Shown here in pieces: positions 1 to 3,000 of a stretch of 5,023 nucleotides of DNA (positions are counted from its first letter, which is position 1; each line of letters begins with the position of its first letter). Made by a program: the position numbers. The stretch is from positions 1 through 5,023 of IMG/VR virus record IMGVR_UViG_2700989509_000020, one strand, 5' to 3'. This DNA is from a virus (taxonomy: Duplodnaviria > Heunggongvirae > Uroviricota > Caudoviricetes).

Positions 1-3000
1 CGGAGTTTATCCAGCTGCGCCTGCAGATGGTCTATTTCGCGCTCCCGGTTGCTCAGCTTTTCCTGCAGGGCGTGGATCAGCGCTTCCTGTTCGGCCAGGC
101 GCTGTTTCAGCAGGAAGATGTCGTCAGAAGAGATGTCGTTCATAAGCCCGTATTTTACCGGGCTTATTCTGTGACAACCAGGATAAAGAGATTTACAGCA
201 TGGTCAGGGAGGTCAGCAGCCGCTTAGGCTGTCGCCAGTCGATACCTTCCAGCAGCATCGCCAGCTGCGCCTGCGTAAGGAACACTTTGCCATCACGGGC
301 TGACGGCCAGGCGAAGCGCCCACGCTCCAGCCGTTTGGTCAGGAGGCACAGCCCGTCACCGGTGGACCACAGCAGTTTAACCTGACTGCCGCTGCGGCCC
401 CGGAAAATGAAAACATGGCCGGACATGGGATCGTCTTTCAGCGCCGTCTGTACTTTCGCAGCCAGGCCGTTGAAGCCATTTCTCATATCGGTGATACCGG
501 CAACCAGCCAAATTTTGGTCCCGGAAGGTAACGGGATCATCGCTTCAGTTCCTGTATCAGCAGAGTCAGGAGCTTTTCGCTGACATTGCCATTGAAGCGG
601 AGCGTCCCGTGCCGGAACGTTACCTCACAGCTGATACTGAGGGTTTCCGGGTCCTCTGCGAGCGATTCTGGCTGTTCGGCAGCTGCATCGAGAGTCACAG
701 GAAGTAGCTGGGGGCTCTCTGAAGAAGGTAATAGCAGCTTTCCCTCGCGCCATTGTTGTCGCCATTTGAACAACAGATTGGCGTTAATGCCATTTTCAAG
801 AGCAAGTTTTGAGATGGATATCCCGGGTTCACAGGAGGCAGCAACGAGCTGCTGTTTAAATTCGGGAGGATAATTAGGGCAGCCTTTTCGCCTGCCGGGA
901 GTCACATTTTTCTGCATATCTGACACTTTGGTTCCCACTACTTATTTGGTGGACACCACTTTGTCTAATTCGTCAGATTCTGACCAGACGGTTCAGGCTG
1001 TACGCTTACCAGACACCTTCTTATATTCTGGATGTCTGCGGCGTTTTTTTACAAATTACTGACAGCCAATACTCTCTCAGAGAAAAATATTTTAACTATC
1101 TTTTATAATGAAGTTTCCCTTGATAGGATCATAAACACATTTATCAGGACTTATAATCATTGATGCCGTTATTGGTTCTCGGGTCAGTGGATGATATGAG
1201 CCTTCACTAGCTAAACGAGAAAATGCATCAAAATCAAATAAGCAGCATACTGCCGAACTATCTGAATTTTTGACAAACACTCCTTCTTCGGGTCTCTCTA
1301 GTGTAATTGGACACTGAATAGACTCTGGCGGGCACTGGAAATTTCCTGAACTAACAGGAAACTTACATTGAGATATTTTGTCCTGAATACTCTCTTGCGA
1401 TTGTGCTTCACCTGAGTCCGAAAGCATACTGAGCATCCTATCGCGAAGAGCTTCAGGGCCGTTATTAAACCCATAAAGGAATAACTCAGTAAGCAATCCC
1501 CCACTACTGCCGCTGGATAGAAAACGCCCATCGGTTTCATTAAATACAATGCTGACAGTCTCATTACCTAATGTAAACTCCCCTCGACCGCTAGATGCTA
1601 CTTGAGCTCGAAGGACATTCAATCCATTAAAAATGAGCTTGATCTAATCTCCGAATTTAACGGCATTATAAAACTCCCTATTTTAATTTAAACTCCAGAC
1701 TTAAATAGCTTTAACAAACAGCCCCCATACATGACAACAAAAACCGGAGCCGGACTCCGGTTTTGTGAAGCTGTCGGGTTACTTCATCCCGCCAATATTT
1801 TCCCACCTCCCGTCAGCACGCAGGATTTGCAGCGGTCTTACCACGCACTGTATCTGCTTTTTATCCGCATCCAGTATCACCACCTGTGTGATTACCCTGT
1901 CCTGCTCCGGAATAATGCCATTCTCATCTGACTCCAGGATGTCTGCCGGCCCCAGTCGCAGTTGTACTGTAAGCGACTGCCCGTGTTCACAGTCATCATG
2001 CTTTCCGCAACCACACAGACGCTCCATAAGCTTTCTCAAAATATTCATGTCATTCTCCTGTTCTGCCTGTATCACTGCCCACTTCATCCAGTCCCTTAAC
2101 ATCCTGCCACGGCCCGTCGCCAAACCTGACCTGCAAATGCTGAAAAAAACCCTGAACCCGTGTGGCATCTTTGGGGTCAAGAAAGGTCAGTCCGGTGATG
2201 AGCGCACCATCTGTATCCGGGAACCAGCCATGGCTGTTTGTCTCAATAATGCTCGCCGGCCCCAGACGAAAACGGATTTGTGTCTCCCCCGGGTCGCCCT
2301 TCGGTCCCTGAGGTCCGGTTGCCCCCACCGGGCCAGCCGCACCTGTTTCTCCTTTCGGTCCCTGTGGGCCAGCCGGGCCTGCCGCACCGGTATCTCCCTT
2401 TGGACCCTGTGGACCTGCATTTCCCGTCAGACCGGTCTCTCCCCGCTCTCCCCTGTCGCCTTTCGGCCCCTGCGGACCTGCCGGACCTGTATCTCCTCCC
2501 GGTCCCCGTTCGCCGGTTGCCCCGACAGGGCCGGTGTCACCACGCTCTCCCTTATCCCCCTTCGGCCCCTGAGGACCCGCGGGCCCCGGTTCTCCCTTTG
2601 GTCCGGGTGGCCCCACCACGGTGGGGATTCGGTTTACGGCCTCTTCCGCCGCTATCCTGCTTTGTTCCGCTGACTGTGCGCTTTCTGCTGACTCCCGGGC
2701 TTTTTCTGTTGCGGTCGTTGCATCCCTGGCTGCATTACCGGCTGCACTTTCTGCCGTCTTTCTTGACAATTCAGCTTCTGCTGCACTTTGTGATGACTCA
2801 CTGGCTTTTTGAGCGGCCGCAGAAGCCGAGGACGAGGACGCATCCTCTGACTGCTTTGCTGAGGCTGCACTTTCTGCCGCCTGCCGGGCTGACTCCGATG
2901 CCTCCCCTGCTGAAGTGTCAGCATTTGCAGCGCTCTCTTCTGCCTGACTGGCTGATATGCCGGCATTCCTCGCTGACGTCTCCGCCTCTCCGGCATTCTT

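Follow-up and report, generated by a model that had tools for sequence, protein, structure and literature searches.

The stretch of DNA analysed here (hereafter the window; 5,023 nucleotides [nt], positions 1 to 5,023 of IMG/VR virus record IMGVR_UViG_2700989509_000020, Caudoviricetes) carries a small open reading frame (ORF) of 89 amino acids (aa) plus a TAA stop (1779-2048) directly after the side tail fibre gene stf. We found that this ORF is almost certainly a genuine protein-coding gene, whose product is a free-standing paralogue of the C-terminal PfC domain of Stf fitted with a short basic amphipathic helix and a floppy linker, and that its translation is coupled to that of stf, with which it shares a terminator-bounded unit; the small ORF and the fibre tip form a single cassette in both inheritance and exchange. 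All genes in the window, from J to the ORFs of an IS66-family element, read on the minus strand, and the features given below are on that strand unless marked otherwise.

The ATG of the small ORF (2046-2048) is separated from the TGA of stf (2050-2052) by a single nucleotide (C, 2049), and an AGGAGA Shine-Dalgarno (SD) site at 2054-2059 lies within the last stf codons, 5 nt before the ATG. These coordinates agree in every respect with the original prediction, which had described an 89-codon ORF right after stf with AGGAGA in the last stf codons and a 1-nt spacing, the interval given at that time (1779-2110) also taking in the last approximately 20 codons of stf. A longer reading, a 133-aa ORF starting from TTG at 2180, was dropped in favour of the conserved SD site and the ATG at 2048; in phage 933W, too, the orthologue L0122 has been annotated with a start further upstream, giving a coding sequence of 129 aa. 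Directly 3' of the small ORF, an intrinsic-terminator-like hairpin followed by a U run (approximately 1733-1775; free energy -21.2 kcal/mol, z -3.0), which is an annotated terminator in phage 434, closes the unit formed by stf and the small ORF.

The relationship between the small protein and the fibre tip was evident in every comparison made. Stf (439 aa; 2050-3369) ends in a PfC domain, a C-terminal trimerisation and tip domain, at residues 365-428 (2086-2277; PF06820, 125.2 bits), and the small protein has its own at residues 28-89 (1782-1967; PF06820, 125.1 bits). Both copies match PF06820 (Phage_fiber_C) over its full length (profile positions 1-64) at approximately 125 bits and E values of approximately 1e-36, the gathering cut-off being 25 bits. 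In a BLASTP comparison, residues 28-88 of the small protein aligned with residues 365-427 of Stf at 35% identity and 62% positives (E 1e-11), upholding the earlier observation that the ORF resembles the post-collagen domain of Stf. The Smith-Waterman score of the pair was 103, as compared with 22.4 ± 3.7 (maximum 39, n=2000) for shuffled sequences, so that the similarity is significant (z = 21.5). At the nucleotide level, the two PfC coding segments are only approximately 49% identical (97 of 198 aligned columns) with no long identical run, indicating that the duplication is old; the original prediction was right that it is not a recent tandem event. In addition, the 89-position profile of PHROG 576 matches the small protein from residue 1 to residue 89 (E 1.3e-59), and the two-gene module of an Stf-type PfC followed by a small PfC was found in the window and 68 related loci, in phages 434 and 933W, and in Salmonella.

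We then have to consider whether the gene is maintained as a protein. In a set of 84 related loci from phage and prophage contigs, the small ORF was intact in 83, and the GGAGAATGAC junction was found in 83 of the 84; where stf was also intact (68 loci), the 1-nt stop-to-start spacing, the ATG and the GGAGAATGAC junction were kept in every case. Among 55 distinct alleles of the small ORF, synonymous divergence (dS) was 0.17 and the ratio of non-synonymous to synonymous substitution rates (dN/dS) was 0.15 overall; codons 1-27 gave 0.23 and the PfC part 0.086. For the PfC domain of Stf itself, the 68 loci yielded a dN/dS of 0.24, with recurrent polymorphism at approximately 10 sites, as against 0.09 for the PfC of the small ORF; within E. 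coli, the free PfC copy is the more constrained of the two. The intact loci and the low dN/dS indicate a translated protein under selection and not a relic, bearing out the view that this is a real coupled gene, conserved as an intact frame in related prophages, rather than debris. The polymorphism of the Stf PfC in these loci was concentrated at residues 372-373, 380, 385, 398, 404 and 408 (variants A/G/M, S/N/R, H/N/Y, D/G, D/A, R/Q and F/L/M/V), which may be regarded as candidate exposed or receptor-contact positions.

Of 5426 complete E. coli genomes, 698 contained the region, which occurred at a median of 12 places in each, and protein homologues were found in E. coli, Escherichia albertii, Citrobacter rodentium and Salmonella. 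Among 50,697 phage records, the small ORF and the Stf-type PfC were each detected in 296, with an identical breakdown by organism name, the comparison being made at the level of counts and names; the best matches for both were all at least 80% identical. A profile search of 1.84 billion representative proteins returned only 81 matches, mostly fragments and deletion chimeras of degraded prophages, so that the family is narrow. When the PfC domain of Stf served as the query of a homology search, nothing more diverse than Escherichia sequences was gained. Two apparent outliers were rejected: a Streptomyces match in the scan of species-representative genomes was a false positive, a methyltransferase-like ORF picked up through the pattern RADGRWEN, and a 725-bp contig labelled Xanthomonas pisi DSM 18956 (L084), whose stf end and small ORF are 94-97% identical to those of E. 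coli prophages, is almost certainly contamination.

Carriers of the small gene include phage 434 and the short-tailed Shiga toxin (Stx) phage 933W. A blastn comparison of the window with 933W revealed a single shared block of 892 nt with 94% nucleotide identity (1709-2599), comprising distal collagen, PfC, small ORF and terminator and ending just past the latter, and virions of the window type and of 933W otherwise share nothing in this neighbourhood. The cassette containing the small gene is thus exchanged between long-tailed (lambda/434-like, siphovirus-type) and short-tailed (933W, podovirus-type) phages. Since the long- and short-tailed carriers have only this cassette in common, any virion partner of the small protein must lie within it.

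A second, more distant pair was found in Salmonella enterica prophages, reached through one of the 81 profile matches, in which the gene order is J, a 100-aa ORF, a GDSL lipase, Stf (468 aa) and a 79-aa PfC ORF. The Salmonella Stf consists of PfN, Phage_fiber_2 and PfC, without collagen, and the 79-aa ORF, which is provided with an AGGAGG site, begins within stf (23-nt overlap) and has a terminator hairpin after it; its product (P0176) matches PHROG 576 (1.8e-23). Between E. coli and Salmonella the small proteins are 62% identical and the Stf PfC domains 36%, and a small protein compared with an Stf gives 30-35% in all combinations, so that the duplication is older than the split of the phage lineages, which rules out a recent leftover. 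Both copies have been retained on fibres whose shafts differ, and it is again the free one that evolves more slowly, here between genera. The proposal that the ORF is a tip left behind by cassette exchange therefore finds no support as a description of its present-day state, given the dN/dS of 0.09, the invariant start, ribosome-binding site and spacing, the Salmonella pair, and the position of the gene inside the exchanged cassette. In the Salmonella prophage (L087, 1888-5240; GCA_007019015.2), the 452-aa GDSL-family lipase/esterase between J and stf occupies the place of lom in the E. coli phages, and a SopA-like effector gene lies downstream.

The original prediction had not recognised the arrangement as a described system, a statement that does not stand. 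Orthologues have been recorded as ORF68 (ECs1229) of Sp5, L0122 of 933W and CPT_434_24 of phage 434, all of 89 aa, 91-99% identical to the product of the window gene, and with the same position and the same 1-nt junction. RefSeq names the product 'phage tail fiber C-terminal domain-containing protein', PHROGs holds a dedicated 89-position 'tail fiber protein' family (PHROG 576), and Mondal et al. (2016; PMC5155283) described ORF68 of Sp5, which follows the fibre gene, as a fibre C-terminus domain of 89 aa. Given these RefSeq, PHROG and Pfam entries and the study of Mondal et al., the observation is not new: this is a widespread, annotated small gene, and the options raised for it have already been considered, and partly tested, in the literature. 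The present analysis adds the difference in selection between the PfC copies, a Salmonella pair whose fibre lacks collagen, the boundaries of the cassette exchanged between siphovirus and podovirus types, and a tentative structural link to the Mu fibre tip. In two papers examined for evidence of virion presence or lysogen expression, the small protein was not mentioned.

Three parts can be distinguished in the small protein: a basic amphipathic helix at residues 3-12 (ILRKLMERLC; 2013-2042), a variable linker predicted to be disordered at residues 13-27 (GCGKHDDCEHGQSLT; 1968-2012), and the PfC domain. An AlphaFold2 (AF2) model based on a 14-sequence alignment including Salmonella had a predicted local distance difference test (pLDDT) score of 75 overall, whereas a 6-sequence alignment gave an unusable model (pLDDT 48). 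In the former, a helix was modelled at 3-12 and a six-strand beta domain had pLDDT values of approximately 76-91 per 10-residue block, whereas residues 14-23 of the linker scored below 50. The linker, which is 10 residues shorter in Salmonella, also holds the greater part of the amino-acid polymorphism. The hydrophobic positions of the helix (3, 4, 7 and 11) are conserved in Salmonella. Alignments further revealed an acidic tail after the PfC of Stf (2053-2085, overlapping the ribosome-binding site of the small ORF) that is absent from the small protein. The net charge of this tail is -3 in E. coli and -2 in Salmonella and that of the helix is +3 in both, and the acidic tail and the basic helix may possibly form a docking pair. 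A reading of CGCGKHDDCEH as a zinc-binding CxCx2Hx4H motif was rejected, H22 being replaced by N in 10 of 55 alleles and the motif being absent from the Citrobacter and Salmonella proteins; as the Cys/His cluster is not conserved, it is unlikely to bind a metal. Nothing relevant was returned when the PDB was searched by sequence with the small protein and with its profile. The tryptic peptides expected from the small protein are LGPADILESDENGIIPEQDR, VITQVVILDADK and QIQCVVRPLQILR; LC-MS/MS data for CsCl-purified EHEC phages in which the gene is present (phi330, phi345, phi346 and others; PMC12502783) are available as PRIDE PXD061229.

Our preferred reading, to which we assign a probability of roughly 0.4, is that the small protein is a homotrimeric knob that docks on the distal end of the fibre as a dispensable accessory knob or cap. 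It corresponds to the option of the original prediction in which a stand-alone module co-assembles with the fibre or caps it. A homotrimer is probable because the homologous PfC of Stf trimerises on its own; the three N-terminal helices would form a stub at the place where Stf has its collagen shaft. The protein would be made beside the fibre in matching amounts and would then dock on the distal end of the Stf trimer, a partner proposed since the Stf PfC and acidic tail are the only virion parts common to the long- and short-tailed carriers. Once docked, it would serve as an extra distal knob or cap tuning adsorption, stability or host range, and would be dispensable for plaque formation on laboratory K-12. 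The more specific version, in which the free PfC is a component of the virion, a separately encoded second distal knob held non-covalently through the basic helix stub and the acidic tail of the fibre, seems to us doubtful.

Several points weigh against the accessory knob. Deletion of ORF68 from Sp5 led to its classification as non-essential, the phage still infecting in a K-12 background (PMC5155283), so that any structural role must be accessory, and the rotary-shadowed recombinant fibre looks complete without the small protein (PMC3368898). The small ORF is the slower-evolving copy, whereas rapid evolution would be expected of a tip in contact with a receptor. Alleles of the Stf PfC and of the small ORF did not co-vary (r 0.01-0.12), a test made uninformative by recombination and low diversity. 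The match to the Mu fibre is weak at the sequence level (z 2.5-4.6; hhalign probability <1%), and both the presence of the small protein in the virion and its binding to Stf are matters that we infer.

The same experiments bear on the idea that the small protein is a transient assembly helper in place of lambda Tfa or Mu U, the free PfC templating or protecting the folding of the fibre PfC trimer without being kept in the virion. The small gene does sit where lambda has tfa and Mu has U/U', its translational coupling would lead to local co-production with Stf, its strong conservation would suit a housekeeping assembly role, and PfC may be similar in fold to the tip of the Mu fibre, for whose production a chaperone is present; the phage 434 record even labels the gene 'tail fiber assembly chaperone'. 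That label, however, carries no supporting note and looks positional, and no similarity to any Tfa family was found, none appearing among the Pfam, PHROG and NCBIfam matches of the small protein at E values up to 0.01. Moreover, recombinant EPclA, a Col-PfC fragment and the isolated PfC were all obtained as trimers in E. coli without the small gene, and Col-PfC refolds fast after melting (Ghosh et al. 2012; PMC3368898, in which the downstream ORF is not mentioned), and Sp5 lacking ORF68 is infectious in a K-12 background although its fibre, ORF67, is essential (PMC5155283). We therefore consider an assembly helper unlikely. The suggestion that the ORF substitutes for a missing tfa is correct in its premise, as no scanned ORF in the window matched a Tfa family, and is weakened as to the substitute role by the trimers made without the small gene and the infectious Sp5 deletion.

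An 'intragenomic reservoir sequence' role was suggested for ORF68 by Mondal et al. (PMC5155283), in which the gene would be a silent reservoir or displaced tip, kept as an alternative sequence for recombination into stf and without function as a free protein. Rare natural recombinants lend this some substance: in one protein (P0058), collagen is joined in frame to the PfC of the small ORF, and in another (P0121, in L092), the N-terminal half of the small ORF is combined with the C-terminal half of the Stf PfC within a tandem duplication. Such recombinants nevertheless amount to 1 to 4 sequences among thousands, the nucleotide identity of approximately 49% leaves almost no substrate for homologous exchange, and no invertase or repeat system flanks the small ORF. 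The protein itself is under purifying selection, which extends to its start, ribosome-binding site and N-terminal helix, and the copy taken to be a spare is the slower to change, both within E. coli and between genera; a spare tip fits this poorly, since it should track the arms race at least as fast as the tip in use. A reservoir is thus, in our estimate, improbable.

Some loci illustrate how the two paralogues can recombine. In E. coli GCA_005381265.1 (L092, 2697-3246), an Stf of 437 aa is followed by a 92-aa chimera, made of the N-terminal half of the small ORF and the C-terminal half and tail of the Stf PfC, and then by a normal 89-aa small ORF, a tandem duplication that looks like the outcome of unequal crossover between the two PfC paralogues. 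In E. coli GCA_038404665.1 (L091, 4-291), the collagen of Stf is fused in frame to the PfC of the small ORF between GP and ADILES, deleting the PfC of Stf and the N-terminus of the small protein; the contig begins at the fusion. In addition, metagenomic collagen fibres (P0144, 565 aa; L093, 4031-5071) have 2-4 tandem repeats resembling the C-terminal half of PfC (VVVLDAD...RADGTW.EIP) before the collagen, L093 being a metagenomic phage contig whose 346-aa fibre has two of them. These repeats are nearer to the small-ORF type than to the Stf type; a tblastn search of the phage collection with P0144 gave matches mainly over the collagen segment, and P0144-like repeats are used here as an analogy only.

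The same tandem half-domains in P0144 and L093 can be cited in favour of a programmed +1 frameshift at GAA-UGA-C, which would fuse Stf and the small ORF and give some fibres two tandem PfC knobs. In E. coli as in Salmonella, the reading frame of the small ORF is shifted by +1 from that of stf, and UGA-C is a weak stop with the SD-like AGGAGA just upstream. The well-known frameshift site of prfB also has an SD-like element just upstream of a weak stop. At the junction in the window, however, the P-site GAA cannot re-pair in the +1 frame and the SD site abuts the codon instead of lying 3 nt upstream, so that the features of a prfB-type site are not present; the Salmonella junction is built differently; and the strong SD site and ATG fully explain the sequence. 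Mondal et al. sought a signal fusing ORF67 and ORF68 and found none (PMC5155283). We regard a frameshift as very improbable.

A function outside the virion would also agree with a gene that is not needed for particles to form, whose conservation shows no co-variation with Stf alleles, and whose product is a complete trimerisation-type domain with no shaft; the protein might be a soluble trimer freed at lysis to act as a receptor decoy or mask, or a poison subunit that enters mixed trimers and limits fibre number. Neither a signal peptide nor a lipobox is present, the N-terminus being short and charged and its Cys not conserved in Salmonella; lysogen expression is unsupported; and the gene is situated inside the late fibre unit, upstream of the terminator. 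Such a function therefore appears improbable. A lipoprotein or signal-peptide reading of MNILKKLMQRLCGC was rejected on inspection, the hydrophobic stretch being too short and charged and the Cys not conserved.

Compared with Sp5 and 933W, nothing essential differs in the window, the partner fibre here being of the lambda-like EPclA type and not the podovirus EPclB type. The PfC of EPclA and EPclB (Ghosh et al. 2012) belongs to the same PF06820, and the copy in Stf trimerises autonomously and so nucleates the collagen helix; the small protein differs from it in having no shaft, in its 12-residue helix and linker, in being approximately 33% identical to the Stf copy, and in evolving more slowly. 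Lambda Tfa, Mu U/U', P2 G and the T2-type gp38 tip adhesins are likewise encoded by small genes directly after a fibre gene, and in Mu the product of that gene is regarded as part of the fibre. They are, however, unrelated in sequence to the small protein and are not copies of the fibre's own tip, and an Stf-type fibre can fold in the absence of the small protein. A tentative structural link can be drawn between PfC and the distal C-terminal domain of the phage Mu S/S' fibre (PDB 5yvq and 8ju3). The transient chaperone 'caps' of Alteromonas phages (PMC10579305) are also small fibre-tip proteins, co-transferred as part of a host-recognition module across unrelated morphotypes; they belong to an unrelated family, and the likeness is one of analogy only.

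These fibres are carried by Shiga-toxin phages and by many lambdoid prophages of enterohaemorrhagic E. coli (EHEC), E. albertii and C. rodentium, elements that disseminate toxin and effector genes. Should the small protein prove to be part of the fibre tip, as in the accessory-knob reading, it belongs in accounts of host finding and fibre engineering, whereas it can be ignored if it is only a helper or a spare. Were the separately encoded second knob correct, collagen-like fibres would consist of two proteins, the small gene supplying a conserved outer knob next to an inner knob that evolves faster; they would be the split-gene counterpart of the tandem-knob fibres found in some other phages. 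What is gained is an improved annotation for a common gene and not a new kind of system.

The remaining features of the window are those of an EHEC-type lambdoid prophage tail end. The C-terminus of J (4120-4968) is followed by lom (3428-4087) and, between lom and stf, by a terminator-like hairpin (3380-3401) that is an annotated terminator in phage 434. In Stf, a Pfam scan gave the order PF08400 (residues 3-135), an Ala/Ser/Glu-rich segment, the collagen-like Gly-X-Y region (PF01391, 4.8e-17; approximately residues 250-363, 2281-2622) and PF06820. With the Ala/Ser/Glu-rich segment read as a putative coiled coil, the protein runs from PfN through the coiled coil and one collagen domain to PfC, as in EPclA, which is listed with 437 aa in Table 2 of PMC3368898, as compared with 439 aa for the Stf studied here. 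Two long antisense ORFs on the plus strand (1765-2673, 302 aa; 2280-3140, 286 aa) are by-products of the GC-rich Gly-X-Y repeat and not genes. Downstream, the cassette is followed by a gene for an NleG type III effector (1092-1622; PF06416, 1.3e-45) and then by orfA and orfB of an IS66-family element (193-938; HTH_Tnp_1 and TnpB_IS66). The NleG ORF starts with TTG, its nearest RefSeq copy is annotated as frameshifted, and a promoter-like TTTAAA-16-TATAAT lies upstream of it at 1665-1692. The IS66-family element 3' of NleG (1-938 region) extends past the end of the window and probably marks decay or rearrangement of the effector locus.

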